DNA from: a virus
Taxonomy: Duplodnaviria > Caudoviricetes
Virus record (IMG/VR): IMGVR_UViG_3300038673_000510
Span: 52,959-116,958 of that record
Strand: one strand, 5' to 3'
Length of the DNA: 64,000 nucleotides
Position numbers and translations under genes: made by a program. The notes under the pieces were generated by a model. That model saw only the letters and a list, made by a program, of their open reading frames with translations. It was not told the origin of the DNA and made no database searches. Shown here piece after piece: positions 1,550-53,372 of the stretch; positions within the stretch are counted from its first letter, which is position 1; each line of letters opens with the position of its first letter.

Positions 1550-1780
1550 ATGAAATTGTCAGAAGTATTAGAAAGTTTAAGATTGAAATTCACAAGTGGT
1601 AATGCTGTTCCAGTAGAACGTGCATTTATTCTTAAAGAAGAGTATGAAGTTATTCTTAATGTAATAAATACATATCAAACGGCACTGGAAGATATTCGCA
1701 ATTTTGCAGATTATTATCCAGGTTGTGGTGAATATTCTTGTGGACAAAAAGCAATAGAAGCTTTGGAGAAAATAAAATGA
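1550..1780 (+). CDS. hypothetical protein
   Basis: 76-aa ORF with an ATGA overlap into the next gene. Confidence 0.65.
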   Translation: MKLSEVLESLRLKFTSGNAVPVERAFILKEEYEVILNVINTYQTALEDIRNFADYYPGCGEYSCGQKAIEALEKIK

Positions 1781-1974
1781 AAAACCAAATAACTGAAATC
1801 GTTCTTATTAAAGATATGAGCGCCGGCAATGAAACAGTAGGCGAATCATGGCAAGAAACAAAAATTTTTAGTGTTGATGAACCTATTACAAATCTTTTAA
1901 AATGGGCTTTTCCGGATTGCGATTATGAAAGAAAATCAAGAAAAAGAGTAACTATTACTATTCCTGAGCAATAA
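1777..1974 (+). CDS. hypothetical protein
   Basis: GGAG RBS and ATG at 1777 overlapping the upstream stop. Confidence 0.6.
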   Translation: MKNQITEIVLIKDMSAGNETVGESWQETKIFSVDEPITNLLKWAFPDCDYERKSRKRVTITIPEQ

Positions 1975-1993
1975 GAAAAAAATCACATAAGGG

Positions 1994-2022
1994 TTGACAA
2001 TAATGCAAATATAAGATATAAT
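1994..2022 (+). promoter_or_regulatory. consensus sigma70-type (early) promoter
   Basis: TTGACA (1994-1999), 17-bp spacer, TATAAT (2017-2022), upstream of the lipoprotein gene. Confidence 0.85.
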
Positions 2023-2046
2023 TAATATATAACGAGGTTAATAAAA

Positions 2047-2904
2047 ATGAATAAAAATCTAATTAGTTTCTCAATGACAATTCTTGTCATTCTCTCAATG
2101 ATCGGTTGTCAAGTTGACACCGATAAATCTGGTAAACGTAATGTTATTGTTAATAAGGCTTTTGGTTCGACAGCTGCTCCCACAAAGTCTTCACGAACAG
2201 CTGCTTCCACAAAGTCTGCACGAACAGTGTCTATTTTCAATGCTGAACGGGGCAACGACACTTTTGAGATTGTACGTGATATTAATAAAGCGAATAATAT
2301 TACAAAAATGACCACCACCTCTTCAAATCATTCAATATATACTTTTGAATATGATGAGAATAATCGTATGGTATGTATGAAAAATTATGATAACATTGAC
2401 GGTGACAGCGAGGGTGATACACTAAATGCTACATTAAAATTTTCATATTCACCAAATACTATGACAGTTGATTATATTGTTGGTACCAATCCCGATGCAA
2501 TCCCTACAAGCAGCATTGTTTATACTTATGATGTTAATGATAGTACAAAAGTTATAAGTAAAGAGGTTGATGGTACAAATTATACTTATGTATATTCAGA
2601 AGATGGGACACTTGATAAAATTATAGACACTAATGGTTTAACATATCTTGATTATACTTATGATGGTTCTGAAGTTTCTTGTTTTTCATCATCATCTGGC
2701 ATAAATTTTAAAAATAGATATAATGCAGATGGTAATATTGAATATGCATATTGCAACGCTGGTCCATCAACAGTATATTATACTTATGAAGTAACCGAAG
2801 TAGAAACGCTTCCCGAAAATTTTCTACCTTTTAATAATTATCTTGTGCTTATTGATGTTACTTATGGCTCGTTTGATGGCTTTAATGGATTTGAATACAA
2901 ATAG
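2047..2904 (+). CDS. Putative lipoprotein with YD/RHS-like beta repeats
   Basis: Signal peptide ending in the lipobox-like SMIG-C, a Ser/Thr/Ala linker, and repeated YTFEYD/YTYD/YVYSEDG motifs. Confidence 0.7.
   Translation: MNKNLISFSMTILVILSMIGCQVDTDKSGKRNVIVNKAFGSTAAPTKSSRTAASTKSARTVSIFNAERGNDTFEIVRDINKANNITKMTTTSSNHSIYTFEYDENNRMVCMKNYDNIDGDSEGDTLNATLKFSYSPNTMTVDYIVGTNPDAIPTSSIVYTYDVNDSTKVISKEVDGTNYTYVYSEDGTLDKIIDTNGLTYLDYTYDGSEVSCFSSSSGINFKNRYNADGNIEYAYCNAGPSTVYYTYEVTEVETLPENFLPFNNYLVLIDVTYGSFDGFNGFEYK
2170..2227 (+). repeat. 27-bp tandem repeat (2 copies plus a partial) in the lipoprotein linker
   Basis: acagctgctcccacaaagtcttcacga / acagctgcttccacaaagtctgcacga / acag. Confidence 0.9.
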
Positions 2905-2927
2905 TTAAATTTAAAAAAGAAATATAT

Positions 2928-2958
2928 AAGAACTCCAGCTTTTGCTGGAGTTCTTTTT
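2928..2958 (+). terminator. Rho-independent terminator
   Basis: AAGAACTCCAGC-tttt-GCTGGAGTTCTT followed by a T-run. Confidence 0.85.
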
Positions 2959-3076
2959 ATATTACAATGGAGAATAAAATGATAAGACAAGCAACTTGCG
3001 AAATAATAGTTTTGAGGACATTAAACAAATTTTTTAATTGGTTTGGTAATATCAAATTATTTGAGAGGAAAAAATA

Positions 3077-3691
3077 ATGGCAACTGGATATACGTATATG
3101 ATTATTAAAGACAAAAAAGAGCCAACATTTCAGGAGTTTGCATTTAAATGTATGCAAGCTTTTTCATGGGTATTCAGAGATAATAATCTAACAATAGAAG
3201 AAGTAATAGCAAAAGAGGGTAATTTGGAAAAAATGACAGATGATAATTATTATTCAAATGAACTTAAGGCAACACAAAAGGAACTGAAAAAACTTTTAAA
3301 AATGACCGATAAGCAGTTTGCTAATCTTGTCGATAAAGAATATAAGCAAAAAATTAAAGTTTATAATGAAAAGATGGCTGAACAAACAGAAAACATTAGA
3401 CGGCTTAATGTTAAAATTAAAGAAGTGGAAGCTTGGAATCCTCCAACAGAAAATCATGTTGCAATTAAGGAATTTATGCTTGAGCAATTAAAAATGACTA
3501 TAGATAGTGAAACTTATGATATTAATAAACCAATAGCTATATCTGTTGATGAATATAAAAAAACAGAAATTGACAAATGTACCGCTGAAATAAAATATTA
3601 TCAAGAAAAAATTGAAGCAGAACATGATAGAATAAATCATAATAATTTGTGGACAAGAACATTTTTACAGAGCATTGGTCTCTTAAAATAA
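3077..3691 (+). CDS. conserved phage hypothetical coiled-coil protein
   Basis: 204 aa with RBS GAGG. The MATGYT...TFQEFAFKC and WNPPTENH pattern is recalled from phage hypotheticals. Confidence 0.7.
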   Translation: MATGYTYMIIKDKKEPTFQEFAFKCMQAFSWVFRDNNLTIEEVIAKEGNLEKMTDDNYYSNELKATQKELKKLLKMTDKQFANLVDKEYKQKIKVYNEKMAEQTENIRRLNVKIKEVEAWNPPTENHVAIKEFMLEQLKMTIDSETYDINKPIAISVDEYKKTEIDKCTAEIKYYQEKIEAEHDRINHNNLWTRTFLQSIGLLK

Positions 3692-4690: not shown

Positions 4691-5608
4691 ATGCAATATA
4701 TTCCAAAGACATTATATCTTCCATCTGGCGGATTATTATATCCGCCAGTGGCTTATATACATAAACTTGATGCTTCGTATTATCTCGCCGAATTAGATGC
4801 AAATATTTATGATACAAATTTTGATAAAATTCAAAGTATCATAAAACGTTTTTGCTTACTTCCAATCGACATAAACAATATGTTATTAAGTGATATATAC
4901 TATATTTATAGTTATATATTAACTACTGATATAGTGGAAGATATTTATTTATTGAAAACAGCATATTGTTCTTCATGTGATACATTTAATAAAGTTTCTG
5001 TATCTGCGGCTAATTTCAATATACAAGTTTATAATCCTTATGATCCAATATGTTTTAATAATGAATATGTTACACTACATAATACTAAAATAAAAATACG
5101 TCATAGAATAGTACAAGATAATTTGCAATATGTGGCATTAATATCATTAGAAGAGAACGAATATGATGAATTACACATTATAAAAATGATGGTATATTTT
5201 GTTATGACGCAAATTGAAGAAATTATATATAACAATAAGTTAGTTCATAAAAAACACTGGAAAGAAGTTTTGGAGAATTTGGTTACCAGAGATTTATTTC
5301 AATTATTTAATCAGACGCTTGAGTTTAATAAAACAATTGGTATTTATGATAAATTTAAGTTTGTTTGTAAGAATTGTGGGGCTAAAAATTACTTTTGGTT
5401 TTTTGATGATATAATTGATAATAAAGTTATTACTCAAAGAACAATTAATAGAGAACAATTACTTATAATAATAAAAAGTTTTATTAGTGAAAGTAGACTT
5501 CCTTGTTTTACATTAAGCGATGTAATGAATAGACCATTACATTATCAAGAAATTTACAAGGAGGCCATTGATAGTTTGGATTTTAAAATCGGACAGGTAA
5601 TGGTTTGA
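4691..5608 (+). CDS. Second gp26-like baseplate hub protein
   Basis: LYLPSGGLLY start with CSSCD and CKNCG knuckles; same architecture as the upstream gene. Confidence 0.55.
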   Translation: MQYIPKTLYLPSGGLLYPPVAYIHKLDASYYLAELDANIYDTNFDKIQSIIKRFCLLPIDINNMLLSDIYYIYSYILTTDIVEDIYLLKTAYCSSCDTFNKVSVSAANFNIQVYNPYDPICFNNEYVTLHNTKIKIRHRIVQDNLQYVALISLEENEYDELHIIKMMVYFVMTQIEEIIYNNKLVHKKHWKEVLENLVTRDLFQLFNQTLEFNKTIGIYDKFKFVCKNCGAKNYFWFFDDIIDNKVITQRTINREQLLIIIKSFISESRLPCFTLSDVMNRPLHYQEIYKEAIDSLDFKIGQVMV

Positions 5609-6093
5609 AAATAACAATAACAGCTACAAGAATTAAAAAACAACAAAACATACAAGAAATATTTACATGGAATCCTATTACAAGATTTGCAATTGATAAT
5701 ACCAGAGGATTACCAGTAAAGTTAAGAATACAAATAGCAAAAATGTCATTACACAATAAAATAACAGATATAAAATTGATTGATATAAATTATTTTGATA
5801 ATAGTATTATGTATTTATATAATATAATAGATACAGATTTTTTTAATATACCAATTATCGAAACATGTATGATTGATTATAATCCTACATTAAGAAATAA
5901 AGACTGTAAAAATTGCCAGCATCTTAAATTTTGGAACAACCAGTTTGTCTGTTATTTACGAATGTTTCCTACGGATAAATTAGAAGGTTGTTTAGACTGG
6001 TTTGAAACAGAAACAAATAACTTGATAGAGATAAGGAAAAGACATGTATATAACCGCAAAACAGCAAGACGAAATGGTATGTTTAATAAATGA
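5605..6093 (+). CDS. hypothetical protein with a C-terminal Cys cluster
   Basis: CKNCQH...C...CLDW; TTG start overlapping the upstream stop. Confidence 0.6.
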   Translation: MKITITATRIKKQQNIQEIFTWNPITRFAIDNTRGLPVKLRIQIAKMSLHNKITDIKLIDINYFDNSIMYLYNIIDTDFFNIPIIETCMIDYNPTLRNKDCKNCQHLKFWNNQFVCYLRMFPTDKLEGCLDWFETETNNLIEIRKRHVYNRKTARRNGMFNK

Positions 6094-6733
6094 ATTTAAT
6101 TTAGAAACAAACTATGGACAAAACATCACTCGTAAAAGTAATGCCATAATGAACAATCTATATACAAATTATATGGATAAAATCATTACTGGCATTATAT
6201 TCACTCCGCAATATAGCTTTTGGCGTTATGCTGAGGCATCTGATTTGATTCAAGAAGCACGAACAGCAATATATTTATCTATATTAAAACAACAATACAA
6301 TAATGCAAAAGGAACACCATTTAATTTCTTTTCAACAGTAGTAAGTAACACATTAAAAAATTTTACAACTAAAGGCAACAGATATTATGAAAAAAAATCC
6401 AATGCTGATATTTCTAAGTTGTATAATAATCCTTCCTTAATGTACAATCAAAACCTCGACAAAAACATTCTCTTCGATAATATAATAGAAATGTTAATAG
6501 TGTATTTCGAAGATAAACCCAAATTTCAGGATTTAACAATTTTATTAGCTCAACATGTACATGTGAATAATTGTAGTAATAGTAAATTCATTAAAAAGCA
6601 TTTTATTCAATATGTTAAGGCGCATAATTATTCGCCCGCAATTGCTAATACATTTTTTAATTATTTAAAACGTTTCGCAACAAATCGTCAAATAAAAGAA
6701 TTGCTTTATTTGATAGACCATGAGTATATATAG
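6044..6733 (+). CDS. gp55: Late-transcription sigma factor (gp55-like)
   Basis: The region 2-like stretch YSFWRYAEASDLIQEARTAIYLSI...YNNAKGTPFNFFSTVVSNTL resembles gp55 (D-M-I...F-D...N-P-F-A-Y-F-T). Confidence 0.7.
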   Translation: MYITAKQQDEMVCLINEFNLETNYGQNITRKSNAIMNNLYTNYMDKIITGIIFTPQYSFWRYAEASDLIQEARTAIYLSILKQQYNNAKGTPFNFFSTVVSNTLKNFTTKGNRYYEKKSNADISKLYNNPSLMYNQNLDKNILFDNIIEMLIVYFEDKPKFQDLTILLAQHVHVNNCSNSKFIKKHFIQYVKAHNYSPAIANTFFNYLKRFATNRQIKELLYLIDHEYI

Positions 6734-16210: not shown

Positions 16211-17791
16211 ATGTATTATAATGAAGCTTATGAATTAAGAAAACAAGAAGAAGATAAGCTCTTCAAAAAATGGGAAGAAGCTCTGAACATAGATGGTGGT
16301 GTAAGAGACGAACACATGGCTCGTACTACAGCTATATGTCTCGAAAACTATATGTCATATCTTCATGGAAACCCACATTTAGTGGCTGAAGATCAGATTC
16401 AGACAAACGCATTCACAGGAGTTAACCTTGCTCTATTAGGTCTTATTGCTCGTGTTATTCCTACTCTTGTTGGTGCTGAACTTGTAGGTATTCAAGCGCT
16501 TCCTACACCTAAGTCTCCTATCTTCACAATGAGATGGTATTACTCAAATAACAAAGGTCAGACACGTAAAGGTGATGAACTTTGGAAATCTCCTACAGAT
16601 TTCTCAAGATTCCCAGTAGGTCTTGATGCAAATTACTCTTCACAGATTATCGTTGAAGACGTTGCTACTGGTGCAGCAGAACACTTACTTGAATTTGGTA
16701 ACACTAATGATAACATTCGTGCGACTAAGCCTTTCATCTTTGCTGGTTCTATGTACATCACTGCTTTTAATGCAGAAACAAAAGATGTTGTTATCGAAGG
16801 TTATGTACCTGGTGCTTATATGACAGCTGGTACTTCAGTTGCTTTCTCAGTTGTTCGTGCAGTTGAAACTGGACATGACGCTCTTATTACAGGTCTTACA
16901 TTCGCAAACACAGGTGGCGTTCTTGGAATTACTGGAACACGTGCTGCTTCTGTAACTATTGGCGGTTCAACAGTTGCTCTTAACTGGCGCCTAAAATATG
17001 AATACAAAGGTGAAGCTGATCCTAACGCTCCTGAACTTAACTTTGAAATCACAGATGAAACTGTTGAAGTTATCAGACGTCAGTTAAGAGGAAAATATAC
17101 AATGGACGCAGCTTATGACCTACAGAAGTTACATGGTCTTAATGTTGATGCTGAGCTTACTAACATGATGAAAATCGAGTTACAAGCTGAGATCAACCGC
17201 GAAATTGTTGCTGACCTTCGTGCTATGGCTGCAATCGTTAAAACTCTTGACTTCAATACTGTTGGTGATGGTGCTACTGGTATAACAATCCGTGGAAACT
17301 ACGATGATGCTCACAAGATTCTTCTTGATAGTATCAACACAATGTCTGCTGAAGTATTCAACATTGGTCGTTTAGGAAAAGCTAACTTCGTACTTGGAAA
17401 TCCAACTACTCTTGCTTTCCTTGATCGTGTACCTGGATTCGTTGGTGCTGGTGTAAATTACAACGGTAAAGAACTTGGTTATGCTGGTTCACTTGGTGGA
17501 AAAATGAAATTCTACATCGATCCTAACTATCCTAAGAATGAACTTCTTATAGGTTACAAAGGACCAGGTGCTCTTGATACTGGATATATCCATGCTCCTT
17601 ATCTTCCTATCATTGCTACTCCTACGATGATTAACCAGGAAACTGGAGACCCATCGAAGATCTTCTACACAAGATATGGTAAAACATATAATATGTATGG
17701 ACCTACAGGACCAAGTAATAAAATTTTGATGGGGGAATATCAATATGCTCGTCTTATCCTCAAGAATTTCCCAACAAGTTTAACATTCTAA
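16211..17791 (+). CDS. gp23: Major capsid protein
   Basis: ELVGIQALPTPKSPIF, RQLRGKYTMDAAYDLQKLHGLNVDAEL...AEINREIV, GYIHAPYLP, TRYG. Confidence 0.97.
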   Translation: MYYNEAYELRKQEEDKLFKKWEEALNIDGGVRDEHMARTTAICLENYMSYLHGNPHLVAEDQIQTNAFTGVNLALLGLIARVIPTLVGAELVGIQALPTPKSPIFTMRWYYSNNKGQTRKGDELWKSPTDFSRFPVGLDANYSSQIIVEDVATGAAEHLLEFGNTNDNIRATKPFIFAGSMYITAFNAETKDVVIEGYVPGAYMTAGTSVAFSVVRAVETGHDALITGLTFANTGGVLGITGTRAASVTIGGSTVALNWRLKYEYKGEADPNAPELNFEITDETVEVIRRQLRGKYTMDAAYDLQKLHGLNVDAELTNMMKIELQAEINREIVADLRAMAAIVKTLDFNTVGDGATGITIRGNYDDAHKILLDSINTMSAEVFNIGRLGKANFVLGNPTTLAFLDRVPGFVGAGVNYNGKELGYAGSLGGKMKFYIDPNYPKNELLIGYKGPGALDTGYIHAPYLPIIATPTMINQETGDPSKIFYTRYGKTYNMYGPTGPSNKILMGEYQYARLILKNFPTSLTF

Positions 17792-17885: not shown

Positions 17886-18497
17886 ATGGAATATATAGTA
17901 TATAAAATAACAAATAAAGTAAACAATAAAATTTATATAGGGCTTACAAATAATTTTCAAAAAAGAAAACAAGGACACCTAAGTGATTGTTTTAATGAAA
18001 AATCTAAACGATACAATCATTTAATATATAGAGCAATAAGAAAGTATGGATTAGAAAATTTTCAGTGGGATATATTAAAAACTTATCCAGATAGAAAATC
18101 TATGGAACTTGGAGAAAAGTATTATATAGCTTATTATGAAAGTAACAATAAAAATAATGGATATAACTGTACTATAGGTGGTGACGGTGGACCAATTCGA
18201 TTAGGTATGAAAACTTCCGAAGAAACTAAAAAGAAAATTAGTCTATCATGTAAAGGTAAAGTAATATCTGAAGAACAGAAGAAACAAATTTCTGAAACAT
18301 TAAAAGGTAGAAAGCCATCAAATAATACTATTATAGCAAATAGTAGACCTATTAAAAATATAGTTACTGGTGAAATGTTTATATCAGTAAAAGAAGCTTA
18401 TGAAAAAGACCAAGTTAGCAAAAGTACTATTTTTAGAATTTTAAATGGTAAACAAGATAAAGATTATAAGCACAATTATGTGTATCAATATATGTAG
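17886..18497 (+). CDS. Free-standing GIY-YIG homing endonuclease with NUMOD3-type repeats
   Basis: IVYKITNKVNNKIYIG...R...E...GYNCTIGGDG; SEETKKKIS repeats; C-terminal HTH. Confidence 0.9.
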   Translation: MEYIVYKITNKVNNKIYIGLTNNFQKRKQGHLSDCFNEKSKRYNHLIYRAIRKYGLENFQWDILKTYPDRKSMELGEKYYIAYYESNNKNNGYNCTIGGDGGPIRLGMKTSEETKKKISLSCKGKVISEEQKKQISETLKGRKPSNNTIIANSRPIKNIVTGEMFISVKEAYEKDQVSKSTIFRILNGKQDKDYKHNYVYQYM

Positions 18498-18523
18498 AAA
18501 TTAACGTAGAATAAAATAAAAAG

Positions 18524-18553
18524 AAAAGGACCTAAAAAATTAGGTCCTTTTTT
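18524..18553 (+). terminator. Rho-independent terminator
   Basis: AAAAGGACCTAA-loop-TTAGGTCCTTTT. Confidence 0.85.
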
Positions 18554-18564
18554 ATTTGTTCTCT

Positions 18565-18572
18565 GTAATATA
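18565..18572 (+). promoter_or_regulatory. putative late promoter GTAATATA heading the first YLE-gene cluster
   Basis: Immediately after a terminator and upstream of a GAGGA RBS. Confidence 0.6.
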
Positions 18573-18606
18573 ATAGCATATATTATAGATGAGGATTTAT
18601 TTGATT

Positions 18607-19284
18607 ATGTTTAAAACTTACCTTGAATATTTGACACGTAAAGAAAGAAGTATTGCTGCTAATAATGGACAGACCAACCTTACTCAAATAAATAAAGTGA
18701 CCGCGAGAGAGGATGATAAGCTTCCAGAATGGTGGTATAGTAATTTTTATACTACTCCCGAACATGTGACAACTAAAAAAGAATATATAGATTATTATTC
18801 AGATAAAATTAGTGAGGTTACTCCCAATACTGATTATAAAAAAATAAGAAAGAGAGTAATAGTCGTTCCACAGGGTAAAGCTTATTGTGGGGATTCAAAT
18901 GAAGTAATACATAATCCTATAATTGGATATATGATGTGCCTTGGATTAATTCCTATGACTATTGATCTTTCAGATTATCAATGGACTTATGAGCCGGTTG
19001 AGGCTAAAAATCTTTTAGCACTTGAAATTGCAGCCTATGGGTCATATCAATCAGAAATATATTTTTCGGAAAGTTATAATCCTTATACTTTGAAAGATAT
19101 TAAAAAAATTATTAATCGACACTATAATGAAGTTTTAAAAAAATTATTTAATATCACTACAGATGATATTCAGTTTATGGATCACCATTTAGAAGAATTA
19201 GAAAATGATGATGAAGATGATCCAGCTTACGATGACGATGACGATGTTTTTGCTTATTATGATAATCCATTTGAAGAGAGTTAA
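18607..19284 (+). CDS. YLE-leader protein, GQTNL paralog family, copy 1
   Basis: MFKTYLEYLTRKERSIAANNGQTNL; shares LPxW, IH..I..YMMC.G and ESY with 23948 and 25038. Confidence 0.75.
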   Translation: MFKTYLEYLTRKERSIAANNGQTNLTQINKVTAREDDKLPEWWYSNFYTTPEHVTTKKEYIDYYSDKISEVTPNTDYKKIRKRVIVVPQGKAYCGDSNEVIHNPIIGYMMCLGLIPMTIDLSDYQWTYEPVEAKNLLALEIAAYGSYQSEIYFSESYNPYTLKDIKKIINRHYNEVLKKLFNITTDDIQFMDHHLEELENDDEDDPAYDDDDDVFAYYDNPFEES

Positions 19285-19683
19285 ATTATGAAAAAAACAT
19301 TAGATTTTTATTTAGAGATGATATTTCAAAAAGATAATAAAGATTTTACTAAAAATTTTAAGTATTCGGCAAAACTCGAGACAATAGAAAGACATTTATT
19401 TGGTGATTATCTTTATATATTGTCTGAAAAAGTTGAAAATAAAGTTCCATATAAATATAAATGGAAAAAAGCAAAATCAAGAAAAGATTCAGATAAATAT
19501 AATCAGTATAGAATCATAGTTGACTCAGCAACTGGCGAACCTGTTGTAAGATACGAATGGGCTACTTCAATCTTTGAATCTGATATTCCTAAAGAACAAT
19601 TTTTTAAAGAAATAAAAGATTTTGTACAAGAAGAAAAAATAAAATTAAAAAGGTTAATGGATACAATGTTTCCTAAATATTAA
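19021..19683 (+). repeat. Donor copy of the 663-bp duplicated segment
   Basis: 19309-19683 equals 21979-22353. 19021-19318 equals 22354-22652 apart from one substitution and one extra A. Confidence 0.95.
19288..19683 (+). CDS. YLE-leader hypothetical protein (original copy)
   Basis: MKKTLDFYLEMIF...; identical to 21961-22353 from YLE onward. Confidence 0.8.
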   Translation: MKKTLDFYLEMIFQKDNKDFTKNFKYSAKLETIERHLFGDYLYILSEKVENKVPYKYKWKKAKSRKDSDKYNQYRIIVDSATGEPVVRYEWATSIFESDIPKEQFFKEIKDFVQEEKIKLKRLMDTMFPKY

Positions 19684-19684
19684 T

Positions 19685-20056
19685 ATGTTAAAAATATATT
19701 TAGAAAATATATCACAAGAACGTTGGCAGGAATATATAGAAAGAATACCGATGCTTAAAGCTGGTGTTGAGGTACTTCATAAACTTGAAAAATTTGGTGA
19801 AGCATATATAGTTGGTGGCGCAGTTCGTGATATAGTTTCAGGTACTAAAGAGCCACATGATATAGATATAGCAACTAATGTGCCAATGGAAGTAATTGCT
19901 AAAATTTTTGGTAATGATAAAATCAATGATATAGGTGCCTCAAAAGATTTTGGAATAATTACTTTACAGTATAAAGGCTTTAATTATGAAATAGCTCAAT
20001 TTAGATCGGAATCTTATGTTGAACCAGATTATGTACAAAGAATAATAGAGGAATAA
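19685..20056 (+). CDS. cca: Split CCA-adding tRNA nucleotidyltransferase, N-terminal fragment
   Basis: Motif A AYIVGGAVRD...DIDIATN and YEIAQFRSESY, then 12 extra residues and a stop. Confidence 0.9.
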   Translation: MLKIYLENISQERWQEYIERIPMLKAGVEVLHKLEKFGEAYIVGGAVRDIVSGTKEPHDIDIATNVPMEVIAKIFGNDKINDIGASKDFGIITLQYKGFNYEIAQFRSESYVEPDYVQRIIEE

Positions 20057-20884
20057 AATGTACGGATATGTTTATAAAACAACGAACTTGATAAATAATA
20101 AAATTTATATAGGACAAAAGGTTTCTTCGAAATTTTTGTTATCATATTATGGTTCTGGTGTAATTTTGAAACGTGCACTTAAAAAATATGGAAAGGATAA
20201 TTTTTTAATTGAAATGCTATGTGAATGTGATTCTCAAAATGATTTAGATTCTAAGGAAATTTTATTTATTGATAAATATAAAAATGAACATAATGAACAA
20301 TGTTATAATATTGCCTCCGGTTCTAAATTTGGTGGTAATCAAATGAAATATGCTACTAACGAAAAAATTCAAGAAAAAAATCAAAAAATTAGTATTGCTA
20401 ATAAAGGAAAAAAAGCTTGGAATAGGGGTTTAACCATTAATGATCCAAGAGTTAAATTGTATGCCGATAAACATAAGGGTTTTACTTATTCAGAGGCATC
20501 TTTAGAAAAAATGTCTATAAGTGCAAAAATTAGAGCTAATAAACCAGAAAATGTTAATAGGATGAAAAATAATAATCCGGCGCAAAATCCTATTATTGCA
20601 GAAAAAATTAGTAAATCATTACAAGGTAAAATGGTATTAGATAAAAATCCTAACTGGAATACTTTAGATGAAAATAAAATTAAGGAAATGTATTTTGCTG
20701 GATATAAAATTAAAGATATAGCTAATTATTTTGAAGTTGGGACTCAATCGATTACCAGAAGAATAAAAAAATTAAAATTAGCAAAAAGATTAAGGAGTTC
20801 TTTAATATGAAATTAGGCCCTATAGAAAAATTTAATCCTAATAATCCAGAACATCTTGATCCCAAAAAATATAAAATAACTTAT
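20018..20884 (+). mobile_element. 867-bp endonuclease cassette interrupting cca
   Basis: CTTAT direct repeats at 20013-20017 and 20880-20884. In-frame removal restores FRSESYKSSGRKP. Confidence 0.6.
20058..20810 (+). CDS. GIY-YIG homing endonuclease (Seg-like) inside the split cca
   Basis: MYGYVYKTTNLINNKIYIGQ...YYGSG...E...YNI; KAWNRG, NNPA and NPNW modules; C-terminal HTH. Confidence 0.92.
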   Translation: MYGYVYKTTNLINNKIYIGQKVSSKFLLSYYGSGVILKRALKKYGKDNFLIEMLCECDSQNDLDSKEILFIDKYKNEHNEQCYNIASGSKFGGNQMKYATNEKIQEKNQKISIANKGKKAWNRGLTINDPRVKLYADKHKGFTYSEASLEKMSISAKIRANKPENVNRMKNNNPAQNPIIAEKISKSLQGKMVLDKNPNWNTLDENKIKEMYFAGYKIKDIANYFEVGTQSITRRIKKLKLAKRLRSSLI

Positions 20885-21964
20885 AAAAGTTCTGGTCGTA
20901 AACCAACAAGTGTTCAAATTGAAATGTCATTTAAAGAGGATGCTAAAAGAAGAGATTTCACTTTCAACGCTATGGCAATAGATAGTAAAGGAAATGTTAT
21001 AGATTATTTTGATGGACAACAAGCTATTCAGAGTAAAATTCTTAAAACCGTTGGTGATCCAGAACAAAGGTTTACTGAAGATTATTTAAGAATGATGCGA
21101 GCAATTAGATTTGCAAGTAGACTTGGATTTAATATTGATCCTCAAACTGGTGAGGCTATTAAAAAGCATGCCACTAAAATTTCAGGAATATCATCAGAAA
21201 GAATCTTAAAAGAACTATTAAGTATGGCAGAACAGTCTGGAAGTAAATTTGCTGATGCTATTATTGGGTTAAATGATTTTGGATTACTTCAACATATTCT
21301 GCCAGAGATAGTTTCCATGGATGAATATGAGCATGATGAAGAAACTCACCCCGAAGGAAATGTATATCAACACACGCTTGCTGCATTAAGAGCAAACGGA
21401 ATTGTTGATCCAATTATAAATCTTGCTATTTTATTACATGATATAGGGAAGACTACTACACGAACTTATAAAGATAATGGAAAGGTTCAATATCTTGGAC
21501 ATGCACAGGCGGGAATATCATTAATTGAAAAAATTGCAAATAGACTTAAGATGGACAATGATGCAAAAGACGCATTAATCTTTGCGGCCGAAAATCATAT
21601 GAAAATGCACAATTTACTTAATATGAGCAATGCAAAGATATACGCTTTAATTAAAAATAAGAATTGGAACGTATTGTATAATGTTGCTCTTGCGGACCAA
21701 AAAGCGCGGGGAAATCTCTTCCAAAAGGCCGATTGGGACAAGACTGTAGAGCGAATTGAAGATGTAACAAATAAGTATGCTAATCAAGATTTTCAAAAAG
21801 CTATTAAGAAAGTTCTTAATGGTGAAATGGTTATGCAGTTAAAGGGATTAAAACCAGGTCCAGAAGTCGGTAAAATTATTAATCAAACTATGGATTGGAT
21901 TTTAAATAAAAATATTGATATCAATGATATCGAAAAAATTAAGAGGTATATAATAAGCATATGA
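20807..21964 (+). CDS. cca: Split CCA-adding enzyme, C-terminal fragment with HD domain
   Basis: SGRKP...EDAKRRDFTFNAMA (motif B), DYFDG (C), FTEDYLRMMRAIRF (D), SSERILKEL (E), HPEGNVYQHT and LLHDIGK (HD). It has its own AAGGAG RBS at 20792. Confidence 0.92.
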   Translation: MKLGPIEKFNPNNPEHLDPKKYKITYKSSGRKPTSVQIEMSFKEDAKRRDFTFNAMAIDSKGNVIDYFDGQQAIQSKILKTVGDPEQRFTEDYLRMMRAIRFASRLGFNIDPQTGEAIKKHATKISGISSERILKELLSMAEQSGSKFADAIIGLNDFGLLQHILPEIVSMDEYEHDEETHPEGNVYQHTLAALRANGIVDPIINLAILLHDIGKTTTRTYKDNGKVQYLGHAQAGISLIEKIANRLKMDNDAKDALIFAAENHMKMHNLLNMSNAKIYALIKNKNWNVLYNVALADQKARGNLFQKADWDKTVERIEDVTNKYANQDFQKAIKKVLNGEMVMQLKGLKPGPEVGKIINQTMDWILNKNIDINDIEKIKRYIISI

Positions 21965-22353
21965 CAACTTTAGAAATGTATTTAGAGATGATATTTCAAA
22001 AAGATAATAAAGATTTTACTAAAAATTTTAAGTATTCGGCAAAACTCGAGACAATAGAAAGACATTTATTTGGTGATTATCTTTATATATTGTCTGAAAA
22101 AGTTGAAAATAAAGTTCCATATAAATATAAATGGAAAAAAGCAAAATCAAGAAAAGATTCAGATAAATATAATCAGTATAGAATCATAGTTGACTCAGCA
22201 ACTGGCGAACCTGTTGTAAGATACGAATGGGCTACTTCAATCTTTGAATCTGATATTCCTAAAGAACAATTTTTTAAAGAAATAAAAGATTTTGTACAAG
22301 AAGAAAAAATAAAATTAAAAAGGTTAATGGATACAATGTTTCCTAAATATTAA
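21961..22353 (+). CDS. Chimeric duplicate of 19288-19683 carrying the leader of the disrupted target gene
   Basis: MTTLEM leader, then identical to the 19288 gene from YLE to the stop. Confidence 0.8.
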   Translation: MTTLEMYLEMIFQKDNKDFTKNFKYSAKLETIERHLFGDYLYILSEKVENKVPYKYKWKKAKSRKDSDKYNQYRIIVDSATGEPVVRYEWATSIFESDIPKEQFFKEIKDFVQEEKIKLKRLMDTMFPKY

Positions 22354-22652
22354 CTTGAAATTGCAGCCTATGGGTCATATCAATCAGAAATATATTTTTC
22401 GGAAAGTTATAATCCTTATACTTTGAAAGATATTAAAAAAATTATTAATCGACACTATAATGAAGTTTTAAAAAAATTATTTAATATCACTACAGATGAT
22501 ATTCAGTTTATGGATCACCATTTAGAAGAATTAGAAAATGATGATGAAGATGATCCAGCTTACGATGACGATGACGATGTTTTTGCTTATTATGATAATC
22601 CATTTGAAGAGAATTAAATTATGAAAAAAAACATTAGATTTTTATTTAGAGA
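21979..22652 (+). repeat. Circularly permuted copy of 19021-19683 between TATTTAGAGA direct repeats
   Basis: The order is B-A here and A-B in the donor. Novel joint ...aaatattaa|cttgaaattgc at 22353/22354; direct repeats at 21979-21988 and 22643-22652. Confidence 0.92.
22354..22617 (+). pseudogene. Duplicated 3' fragment of gene 18607-19284
   Basis: Identical to the last 88 codons of that gene except one base; no proper start. Confidence 0.85.
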
Positions 22653-22669
22653 GAGTACAAGATCAACAG

Positions 22670-23149
22670 ATGATAAATGAAGGTTTTGTTGATAGATTAG
22701 GTGCTGGTGTTTTGACAGCATTAATCACACTTGGTAGTGTTGGTATTGGTGGCGGATTAGTTGTTGGTTTTAGTGCGTCACAAAAGAACGCTTTGTTAAA
22801 TGGTGAGACAATAAATTTTGAACTTGACAAATCAACCTCACATCTTGATTATACAAAAACAATGGCAAGACAGATGGCTTATCCAAATGGACACCCAATG
22901 AAAACTTTACCAATGAATCCAGCAACAGATTCTTCTCCGGATGAAGTAATGTTTAAAATGAAAATTGATGATAATAAAGCGAATAGTGATTTTGCTTCAA
23001 ATGGAGTTTATGTTGATATAAAGAATAAAATTATTTATGTTAGTAGAGATAGAGTAGAAAAACGTAGTCCATTTAAATTACATGGCGATGAAAAAGAAGC
23101 TAAACGATCAATTGAAAAACAACGTGGCAATATTGATAGTATGAAGTAA
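22670..23149 (+). CDS. Hypothetical protein with a hydrophobic segment; body of the gene whose original start was at 21961
   Basis: Joining 21961-21988 to 22653 gives in-frame MTTLEMYLERVQDQQMINEGFVDRL, followed by a TM-like LGAGVLTALITLGSVGIGGGLVVGF. Confidence 0.7.
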   Translation: MINEGFVDRLGAGVLTALITLGSVGIGGGLVVGFSASQKNALLNGETINFELDKSTSHLDYTKTMARQMAYPNGHPMKTLPMNPATDSSPDEVMFKMKIDDNKANSDFASNGVYVDIKNKIIYVSRDRVEKRSPFKLHGDEKEAKRSIEKQRGNIDSMK

Positions 23150-23151
23150 TT

Positions 23152-23439
23152 ATGAAAAAAAGTTTACATGATTATATTGAAACACTTGATTCTCTTGAGA
23201 ATGATGTTATTAGTATCAATTTATTTGATGATAAAATTATTCAAGCATTAAAAGATGCCAGAGATGGTGATATAATTTTTATGCCGGAATCTGATTATGG
23301 TTTTGGAGAAATATATAAAATTCACAATTGGTTAATTGTGTTTTTAATTCCTAATTTTGGCGGAATTCCAGAATTTCATAATGCCTATCGTTTATCTGAT
23401 GTTGAAGATATGATTCAAGAATTAAGAAGTTTAACATAA
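23152..23439 (+). CDS. hypothetical protein with a YIE leader
   Basis: MKKSLHDYIETLD. Confidence 0.7.
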   Translation: MKKSLHDYIETLDSLENDVISINLFDDKIIQALKDARDGDIIFMPESDYGFGEIYKIHNWLIVFLIPNFGGIPEFHNAYRLSDVEDMIQELRSLT

Positions 23440-52772: not shown

Positions 52773-53372
52773 ATGAAAATATTTTTAAAAGCAATACATG
52801 AAGATAAAAATCTTAATTCGTCAAATATTATAGTAACTTATCAAGGAAGATTTAGTCCGCCAACTCGTGCACATATTTATGTTTATAAGACTTTGTGTAA
52901 TGAATTTGGTCCAGATAAAATTTACATATTAACTGCTGATCCCAAAAAATTGGACGAAAAAAATCCATATACATTTGCAGAAAAAAAAGATATGTTACAA
53001 GCTGCTGGTGTACCATCTGATAAAATTAAACAAATTATTGGTTCAGCATATAACTGGAATGTTATTGCTAATGCAGTTGGGATAACTAATCCAAATGAAA
53101 CTGTTTTGGTTGCATCAATGGGCGCTAAAGATGCAGAAGAAAGAACTAAATATGGAACTTATTATAAAATTTATAATGACAAAATCCCATTAGAAGATAT
53201 GACAAATCGTGGTTATATAAAAATAATAGCCAATATGAATATTGATGGAACTGAAACTCCTGTAAATGCATCAAGTATGCGTAAGGCTATTTCCGAAAAA
53301 GACATAGATATAATAAAACAAAATGTAGAACCAGGAGTATTTAATTGGTTAAGGGAGAATAATAAAATATGA
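52773..53372 (+). CDS. Cytidylyltransferase-like (HxGH-type) nucleotidyltransferase
   Basis: GRFSPPTRAH, KNPYTFAEKK, NASSMRKAI. Confidence 0.8.
   Translation: MKIFLKAIHEDKNLNSSNIIVTYQGRFSPPTRAHIYVYKTLCNEFGPDKIYILTADPKKLDEKNPYTFAEKKDMLQAAGVPSDKIKQIIGSAYNWNVIANAVGITNPNETVLVASMGAKDAEERTKYGTYYKIYNDKIPLEDMTNRGYIKIIANMNIDGTETPVNASSMRKAISEKDIDIIKQNVEPGVFNWLRENNKI

Follow-up and report, generated by a model that had tools for sequence, protein, structure and literature searches.

How might a CCA-adding enzyme keep working when a homing endonuclease gene (HEG) lies in the middle of its coding sequence? The question is raised by a viral genome fragment of the Caudoviricetes, IMG/VR record IMGVR_UViG_3300038673_000510, which comes from a bioreactor metagenome, comprises 117 kb with about 30% G+C and is 63% complete by CheckV estimate. 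The stretch analysed here, called the window, consists of 64,000 nucleotides (nt), positions 52,959 to 116,958 of that record. In the window, the cca gene is divided into two open reading frames (ORFs) with a GIY-YIG HEG between them, and each cca piece carries a short additional peptide at the break, a tail at the end of the upstream piece and a head at the beginning of the downstream piece. We consider it likely that the locus encodes a split CCA-adding enzyme whose halves are rejoined non-covalently by a split mini-sheet module that spreads together with the nuclease. The tail/head pair is a conserved, movable mini-domain that probably clips the pieces together without splicing. The locus comprises the following features.

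19685-20056, plus strand: cca N-half, 123 amino acids (aa), from motif A (GGAVRD, DIDIAT) through FRSESY, plus the tail.
20018-20053, plus strand: tail peptide VEPDYVQRIIEE, residues 112-123 of the N-half, with the core Y-V-[QR]-[KR]-I-[IL] as predicted strand 1 of the module.
20058-20810, plus strand: free-standing gene for a probable homing endonuclease of the GIY-YIG type, 250 aa, with a helix-turn-helix (HTH) at the C-terminus.
20792-20797, plus strand: AAGGAG, ribosome-binding site (RBS) of the C-half, 9 nt before its ATG and within the 3' end of the HEG.
20807-21964, plus strand: cca C-half, 385 aa, with the KSSGRKP remainder of the loop, motifs B-E, the RNA-binding neck and the HD domain.
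20807-20884, plus strand: head peptide MKLGPIEKFNPNNPEHLDPKKYKITY, residues 1-26 of the C-half, comprising predicted strand 2, a short helix and strand 3 of the module.

An earlier note on this DNA, made from the sequence alone, had described two closely packed cca ORFs with a GIY-YIG gene between them and an AAGGAG RBS ahead of the second one, and the ORF coordinates agree with this anatomy. The N-half ends with a TAA at 20054-20056, the HEG follows after a gap of 1 nt, and the ATG of the C-half overlaps the stop codon of the HEG as ATGA. N-half and C-half share one frame, the insert being a multiple of 3. The Pol-β-type head of class II tRNA nucleotidyltransferases, motif B, motif D, the neck and the HD motif are all present across the two halves. 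Pfam assigns PolyA_pol positions 1-74 to the N-half (E 6e-14) and PolyA_pol positions 69-125, PolyA_pol_RNAbd (7.6e-12) and HD (1.1e-6) to the C-half, which also aligns with residues 92-210 of the Geobacillus stearothermophilus enzyme 1MIV (E 8e-29), beginning at C-half residue 30. In the N-half alignment, G44, G45, R48, D49, D59 and D61 of motif A are invariant, and R48, R49 and D50 (RRD), E91, D92 and R95 (EDxxR), as well as H181 together with H211 and D212 (HD), are invariant or nearly so among C-halves. The catalytic motifs GGxVRD, DxD, RRD, EDxxR and H..HD are therefore intact in the window, as had been claimed. Like 1MIV, the cca halves jointly hold all motifs of head, neck and body; the known class II CCA-adding enzymes, however, are single polypeptides whose flexible loop is neither broken nor interrupted by an insertion, and the C-terminal HD domain of the window enzyme is missing from 1MIV.

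The flexible loop of class II CCA-adding enzymes switches the enzyme from C- to A-addition, and the break lies beside it. Homology to unsplit relatives ends at FRSESY and restarts at about G30-R-K-P, a stop and resumption that the earlier note had placed similarly and on which ninety-odd unsplit homologues and the 1MIV alignment agree. Y..GR[RK]P, the conserved part of the loop, is kept on the C-half, and the N-terminal anchor of the loop is replaced by the module. Unsplit relatives comprise about 460-500 aa and possess a constant FRxDGxYxDGRRPxxV loop in ninety-odd cases, or else a FRKDSYQTELQGKGAN variant. The distance from FR to RRD amounts to 26-29 residues in all unsplit homologues examined, tail and head peptides are absent there, and the head has no counterpart in 1MIV. 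The earlier note had also pointed to CTTAT direct repeats bounding the insert. Copies are indeed found at 20013-20017 and 20880-20884, 867 bp apart, but as CTTAT occurs 134 times within the window the flanking repeat is not significant, and we rejected it as a target-site duplication. Homing endonucleases make no such duplications. The CTTAT pair reflects [ST]-Y codons on either side of the insert.

Both peptides are conserved among relatives that are split in the same way. Searches with the C-half identified more than 20 proteins of 383-417 aa (the head is conserved in at least 24 C-halves), all of which start with MKLGPxE[PK][YF][ND]PNNP[DE]HxDxxKYxI..Y..TGR[RK]P, and searches with the N-half identified about 25 proteins of about 120 aa each, which end with FRx[DE]xY-x-x-[PI]-[KD]-x-V-[RQ]-[KR]-I-[IL] followed by a stop codon, the tail being conserved in at least 25 N-halves. 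These split relatives, dozens of metagenomic phage cca genes, are 46-57% identical to the window proteins. Outside this group, megablast with 18500-23200 gave no match to GenBank phages, tblastn matches to named phages were at most 33% identical, and a scan of viral contigs with the C-half confirmed no relative. The mean column identity of the head is 72%, compared with 56% over the whole C-half. For the codons of tail and head, the median ratio of nonsynonymous to synonymous substitution rates (dN/dS) is 0.18 at a saturated dS of about 1.5, and the cca pieces show dN/dS values of 0.14-0.25. The conservation of tail and head, together with their low dN/dS, indicates that the peptides are translated and under selection, and from such conservation we also infer that the halves are translated separately.

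If tail and head form a unit of their own, they might be found elsewhere, and the earlier note had proposed to look for them beside nucleases at other sites. A profile of the head with 31 positions, searched against 1.84e9 representative proteins, gave 14 matches within the E-value limit applied, including loop-site C-halves and proteins broken at a second site. This second site, which carries the same tail/head pair, lies after HPEG in the HD domain of cca. There, HD-domain fragments of 225-251 aa open with a head joined to the sequence that normally follows HPEG (e.g., LGPEEDYDPTNPEHNDPTKYVVVKSG directly before NVYQHT), and a 192-aa middle piece begins with the loop-site head and ends with HPEG-AYVRKILK and a stop codon. 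The HD-site tails, AKVRKILK or AYVRKILK, are homologous to the loop-site tail, and the loop-site head DNA of the window (20813-20872) is 75% identical over 60 nt to the HD-site head DNA of L014 (retrieved loci and proteins are designated by L and P numbers, respectively). In L014 and L015, cca consists of three pieces with the same tail/head pair at both breaks, in the order N-half, GIY-YIG gene, middle piece, ORF for a DUF559/Vsr-like or NUMOD3 nuclease, and HD piece. About 95 of 100 homologues have no insertion at the HD site, HPEG normally being followed by 26 residues up to HDxGK. The presence of the same pair at two positions of one enzyme implies that the module has moved between sites. 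In L014 (3650-4511), the HD-site nuclease is encoded in two overlapping ORFs of 77 aa (Myb-like, NUMOD3) and 222 aa (DUF559/Vsr-like) and may be a frameshifted, decaying HEG.

At the HD site, the module also exists in continuous form. Such modules occur in P0004, P0087, P0166, P0169 and P0171; in the uninterrupted proteins P0166 and P0171 tail and head are fused after HPEG, and P0169 has a degenerate form. P0004, encoded in L018 and L019, is unsplit at the loop site and 96% identical to L014 across the cca body, and its HD site reads HPEG-AKVRKILK-EE-LGPEEDYDPKNPEHNDPTKYIIVKTG-NVLDHT, the fused module being a continuous insertion of 36 aa (residues 268-303). At this site, a clean indel of 883 nt separates the DNAs of L014 and L018, which flank it with 97-99% identity: where L018 has GAG, L014 has a stretch containing a stop codon, the nuclease ORFs and a leader of 12 codons. 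L014 and L018 are thus an HEG-containing and an HEG-free allele of the same gene, with the polymorphism inside the module. In L016, a methionine (..YVRRIIRE-M-RLGPLEPFDP..) is located exactly at the position of the head initiator, as expected for a leftover from the fusion of a formerly split module. The earlier note had named continuous versions in uninterrupted homologues as evidence that the peptides predate the endonuclease; they are present at the HD site and none was found at the loop site, and in view of the fused HD-site modules the module may predate the nucleases.

The occupants of the slot between tail and head vary widely. The HEG of the window matches PHROG 314 'homing endonuclease' over residues 1-238 (8e-30) and a regulator-type HTH over residues 187-246; its Pfam matches to SegE_GIY-YIG (6e-4) and GIY-YIG (4e-3) are both weak and below the curated cut-offs. 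For a comparison of spacers, ten loci were retrieved by exact protein look-up. The slot is occupied by a NUMOD/HTH-type GIY-YIG in the window, L011 and L014, by an unlike GIY-YIG (MIIYxAxNK..YIGQT) in L003, L009, L010 and L015, and by a LEM-3-like GIY-YIG in L005. L012 has a 295-aa Zn-finger ORF without a family match, which by eye had been read as HNH-like; as Pfam and PHROGs gave only weak Zn-finger matches, it was left unclassified. L006 contains a GIY-YIG stump of 97 aa, and L007 and L008 contain a GIY-YIG stump plus IS605 TnpA/TnpB within a gap of 1,995 nt. In L013, the slot is reduced to 63 nt plus an RBS with no nuclease, and a GAGGAAAAGGA of its own is kept ahead of the ATG of the C-half. 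Nuclease-free (L013), decayed (L006) and replaced (L003, L005, L012) states therefore exist at one fixed slot, and tail and head are retained in every spacer state examined. This split layout recurs in 10 or more loci, the one with the 63-nt spacer among them. The L013-like and decayed states indicate that the split gene with its module is a stable condition without nuclease. The suggestion that the peptides are supplied by this particular GIY-YIG element as its own cannot be upheld, as the module hosts several unlike nucleases or none. What stands of the earlier proposal is a functional split mini-domain, to which conservation, a dN/dS of about 0.18, the second site and the predicted fold all point. 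As to the insertion sequence (IS) elements, the IS605-type TnpA (Y1) and TnpB at L007:2362-3836 and L008:2168-3642 lie beside an 87-aa GIY-YIG stump, and L006 holds the same protein pair as L007 and L008 without the IS element.

Neither RNA nor protein splicing seems to restore the gene, in line with the earlier note, which had seen no room for an intron core and no intein motif. An Rfam scan of 19000-22800 at E<=10 identified no intron, and group I and group II introns were ruled out given that, besides the missing match, the sequence outside the HEG amounts to no more than about 40 and 74 nt (63 nt in L013). Pfam recognised no intein domain in either cca half, and an intein or split intein was likewise ruled out: the tail starts with V, Q or I, the junctions have no Cys, Ser or Thr, and the flanking peptides amount to about 38 aa in total. 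Fused forms keep the module within the protein. Three metatranscriptome-library runs and one DNA run were mapped to 19200-22400. Contigs from the RNA libraries are limited to portions of the HEG and to the junction of N-half and HEG; no contig joins across the insert, with a cover too thin to judge splicing or expression and possible DNA carry-over. The retention of tail and head across all spacer states excludes splicing as a general solution.

The earlier note had suggested that the added peptides form one β-strand plus a hairpin, and a predicted structure of a fused protein is consistent with such a mini-domain. AlphaFold2 (AF2) modelled P0004 from a 74-row alignment with a mean predicted local distance difference test (pLDDT) of 92.9, a predicted template modelling score (pTM) of 0.90 and a pLDDT of about 83 for the module. 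The module is predicted to consist of a strand at 269-273 (KVRKI), a strand at 278-283 (LGPEED), a helix at 289-292 and a strand at 297-301 (YIIVK), with the nuclease slot (K275/L278) in the first turn, which links strands 1 and 2. Of a split module, the upstream piece would accordingly supply one strand and the downstream piece strand-helix-strand. Joint modelling of the two window halves, also proposed in the earlier note, sets the tail against the head in the predicted complex. The interaction score derived from predicted aligned errors (ipSAE) was 0.74 in all three runs, compared with 0.00 for the best control; 58 of 80 solved complexes attain the mark applied, compared with 2 of 110 mismatched pairs, a calibration that holds only roughly here since own alignments were used. 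The runs agree in at least 93% of contacts, the partner pLDDT is at least 78, and the predicted interface involves residues 105-123 on the tail side and residues 1-9, 11, 16 and 20-30 on the head side. C:23/N:118 is among the lowest-error contacts (1.0 Å), and most low-error contacts join core strands, for example C:56-60 with N:40-47.

A comparison of the window with L014 indicates that tail and head travel with the HEG. Across 19685-21357 the two DNAs are 58-82% identical by sliding identity outside the region from about 19960 to about 20920, inside which the following tract is found.

19960-20920, plus strand: co-conversion tract, 98-100% identical to L014.

Besides the HEG with tail and head, the tract takes in about 60-100 bp of flanking cca at either end, so that both peptides lie within it and travel with the HEG, as had been supposed. 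The HEG of the window and the L014 copy share 98% aa identity, with a dN/dS of about 0.9 on a handful of differences, and a contig from a metatranscriptome library changes from L014-type to window-type sequence at 19940. A tract of 98-100% identity amid cca DNA that is otherwise 60-75% identical indicates recent homing with co-conversion.

For a phylogeny of the cca body, only sequence starting 30 residues after RRD was used, excluding module and conversion tract, and a FastTree tree of 121 rows was calculated. On it, the 24 split rows need at least 17 state changes, and at least seven pairs of split and unsplit sisters have a support of at least 95. Most split alleles are nearer to an unsplit allele than to any split one; identities to the nearest unsplit and the nearest split allele are 81% versus 64% for P0050, 71% versus 47% for P0035 and 96% versus 73% for L014. 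As the module is one homologous sequence, this scatter requires repeated gains by homing, repeated losses by conversion, or both. Loss of the loop-site cassette is directly visible in L018 (894-3287; also in L019), where 52 aa are left of an L014-type N-half, ahead of a third GIY-YIG gene (242 aa) and a complete cca of 506 aa: the third GIY-YIG and the 5' part of a foreign cca have replaced the cassette region, and the flanks of the replaced region are still 97-99% identical to L014. This replacement looks like a competition between homing endonucleases.

According to the explanation that we favour, the free-standing GIY-YIG HEG would sit in the flexible loop of the head domain, and the halves would be translated separately, the N-half to its own stop and the C-half from an RBS and ATG of its own. 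The break would be bridged by a module of about 35 aa, with a YV[QR][KR]I[IL] tail strand upstream and an LGPxEPYxPNNPEHxDPxKYxI head downstream, and tail and head would form a small three-stranded sheet zipping the pieces into the normal class II fold. The nuclease gene would have its slot in the first turn of the sheet. A module that tolerates being whole, split, or split with 0.06-2 kb in between would offer HEGs a splicing-free safe harbour. Module and nuclease would spread into other cca alleles through homing with co-conversion, and the module may outlast its nuclease, which can subsequently degenerate, give way to another or disappear. As the module is short, has no junction residues and is kept in fused proteins, the proposed association would be non-covalent. 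Whether tail and head represent a general transplantable, split-tolerant β-sheet module, a third solution beside introns and inteins, seems to us evenly balanced; placed in a surface loop, such a module would let a protein be encoded in pieces that reassemble non-covalently, and it would move between sites, and possibly between genes, with whichever nuclease fills its first turn.

The continuous modules at the HD site lend some weight to a different history, in which some phage cca/HD proteins have long carried the module as an inserted mini-domain; it would perhaps serve its own function, its DNA would be a favoured site of homing, and no nuclease would have brought it. The near-isogenic pair L014/L018, which differs solely by a nuclease inside an existing module, and the several unlike nuclease types, or none, in one slot speak for it as well, and it is because fused forms exist at the HD site that we regard this history as unlikely and not as remote. 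It is difficult to reconcile with the roughly 95 of 100 homologues lacking an HD-site insertion and the lack of any uninterrupted protein with a loop-site module, with the same sequence at two sites of one enzyme, which must hence have moved, and with the methionine of L016 (IIRE-M-RLGP) at the initiator position, as for a fused former split. Also, tail and head moved with the HEG within the co-conversion tract, and split alleles are scattered among unsplit ones. A more sceptical view takes tail and head as passive leftovers, a run-on to a stop codon and a leader behind a start codon, with the halves reassembling through the native fold of the head domain alone. The halves of Aeh1 NrdA still heterodimerise without their tails (PMC3045599), and most low-error contacts of our model lie between core strands, but a head that ranks among the best-conserved stretches of the C-half (72% versus 56%), a dN/dS of 0.18 for the module, the retention of the module in L013 after complete loss of the HEG and the re-use of the same peptides at a second site make passive leftovers very improbable. 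Least credible of all seems a cca that is restored by RNA splicing, protein splicing or ribosomal bypass, or else a dead gene. That the halves stand in one frame and the insert is a multiple of 3 would suit splicing; in turn, no intron family was identified at E<=10, there are no intein domains and no Cys/Ser/Thr junctions, the peptides comprise only about 38 aa, and the gap in relatives contains 63 nt, a decayed HEG or an IS element. The conserved ATG and RBS, intact catalytic motifs and dN/dS values of 0.14-0.25 speak against decay.

Several points weigh against the split enzyme with a rejoining module that we prefer. The phylogeny consists of a single FastTree tree without a root, so that gains are inseparable from losses. 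The score of the predicted complex may mostly reflect the likeness to solved intact CCA-adding enzymes: as the fold to which both halves belong has been solved in a single chain (1MIV), much of the ipSAE may come from known structures, and the informative part of the model would be the tail-head contact, which has no solved counterpart, the 1MIV alignment starting at residue 30. Charges of tail and head seem to pair, with KPK..VRK tails accompanying ..EYE.. heads and the EPD..VQR tail of the window and L005 accompanying ..TYK..; however, since tail and head are linked in one cassette, this co-variation could be due to linkage and is not independent evidence of contact. The hosts of the module found are cca/HD proteins only, so that portability is seen between sites and not between protein families; among proteins of more than 674 aa there were no candidates for the head peptide (weak evidence), in the window's own 117-kb record it matched only the cca site, and a six-frame motif scan of all fetched loci found it at cca sites only. 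As the break adjoins the loop for A-addition, the activity could have shifted to CC-adding or to A-adding only, and the fused HD-site modules may be an older insertion domain colonised by nucleases. What our computations establish is the anatomy of the locus, the conservation of the module, its second site and fused form, its mobility and its predicted fold; physical association of the halves, enzyme activity and the DNA cut by the nuclease are inferred.

The closest known system is nrdA-a/mobE/nrdA-b of phage Aeh1, where the split NrdA cannot do without tails that originated with the insertion of mobE and have been called a 'molecular antidote' to fragmentation (PMC3045599). As in cca, the catalytic core is split by a free-standing HEG that overlaps the downstream half (Friedrich 2007; Crona et al. 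2011, PMC3045599), the C- and N-terminal tails are absent from unsplit homologues, and there is neither RNA nor protein splicing. The host gene there encodes a ribonucleotide reductase and the nuclease is of the HNH type, whereas here they are cca and GIY-YIG. The Aeh1 tails are unique sequences from one phage which promote dimerisation rather than the joining of halves; in contrast, the cca module is a conserved pair known by computation from dozens of lineages, where it occupies two sites, accompanies exchangeable nucleases or none, and occurs fused as well. In phage T4, a mobile HEG cassette likewise splits an enzyme gene (gene 39/mobA/gene 60) and adds residues at the break that are absent from unsplit homologues (Bonocora 2011), and the insertion of about 70 aa in gp39/gp60, derived from the mobA cassette, has been proposed as an aid to assembly (cryo-EM, PMC11461880). 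The T4 cassette carries a 50-nt ribosomal bypass, none of which is seen or needed at cca, and the cca module is half the size of the T4 addition and re-used at a second site. Fractured split-intein genes (Dassa et al. 2009, PMC2677866) have the same arrangement of gene half, nuclease gene and gene half with complementary flanking peptides, and Vsr/DUF559-like nucleases are also among the HD-site occupants of cca. Split inteins, however, ligate covalently and comprise about 130 aa with Cys/Ser/Thr/Asn junctions, whereas the cca module has about 35 aa without such residues.

A literature search identified no split phage CCA-adding enzyme, nor a sequence-defined tail pair that is conserved across many lineages, occurs at two sites and in fused form, and does not depend on one nuclease family. 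Splicing-free rejoining as such, put forward in the earlier note, is not new in principle, being known from Aeh1 NrdA (Crona 2011); new is the sequence-defined, reusable module. So far, Aeh1 NrdA has been the one tested case of how HEGs invade essential genes without killing them, and T4 gp39/gp60 a suggestive second one; the tails of each are unique. The cca family provides a natural experiment with five kinds of nuclease, no nuclease, an IS element, fused forms and two positions, which makes it testable whether such tails are adaptive, how they arise and whether they are movable. The break beside the loop for the C-to-A switch means that the split enzymes naturally test how much freedom this loop needs. 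Tail and head (about 10 + 25 aa) offer a small natural heterodimerising tag for split-protein engineering, and a general module, if true, would be a further way for homing endonucleases to live inside coding sequence.

No tRNA genes were found within the window. A gp23-like ORF lies shortly upstream of the split cca, and the record has further T4-like features. Directly after this capsid ORF (526 aa, 16211-17791), a second free-standing GIY-YIG gene (203 aa, 17886-18497) is located, which is similar at its N-terminus to the HEG within cca (80% identity over 44 nt). A permuted duplication lies on both sides of the cca cassette, window 19020-19683 and 21966-22652: 19296-19683 is found again at 21966-22353 (99%), directly followed by a copy of 19020-19297 at 22353-22630 (100%), after which the first 28 nt of the 19291 segment occur once more. 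By this duplication, ORF 19288-19683 is present again as ORF 21961-22353 and the C-terminus of ORF 18589-19284 as a 64-aa ORF.

Other split cca genes are situated in different genomic contexts. In L005, split cca lies between a T4-type portal gene and the genes for prohead protease and gp23, and about 340 additional aa without family match are fused to the N-terminus of its N-half (1771-3180). Near the split cca of L009, a terminase large subunit with a LAGLIDADG intein is encoded (4787-6306), and Thg1-like ORFs are located near that of L010 (4940-5498).

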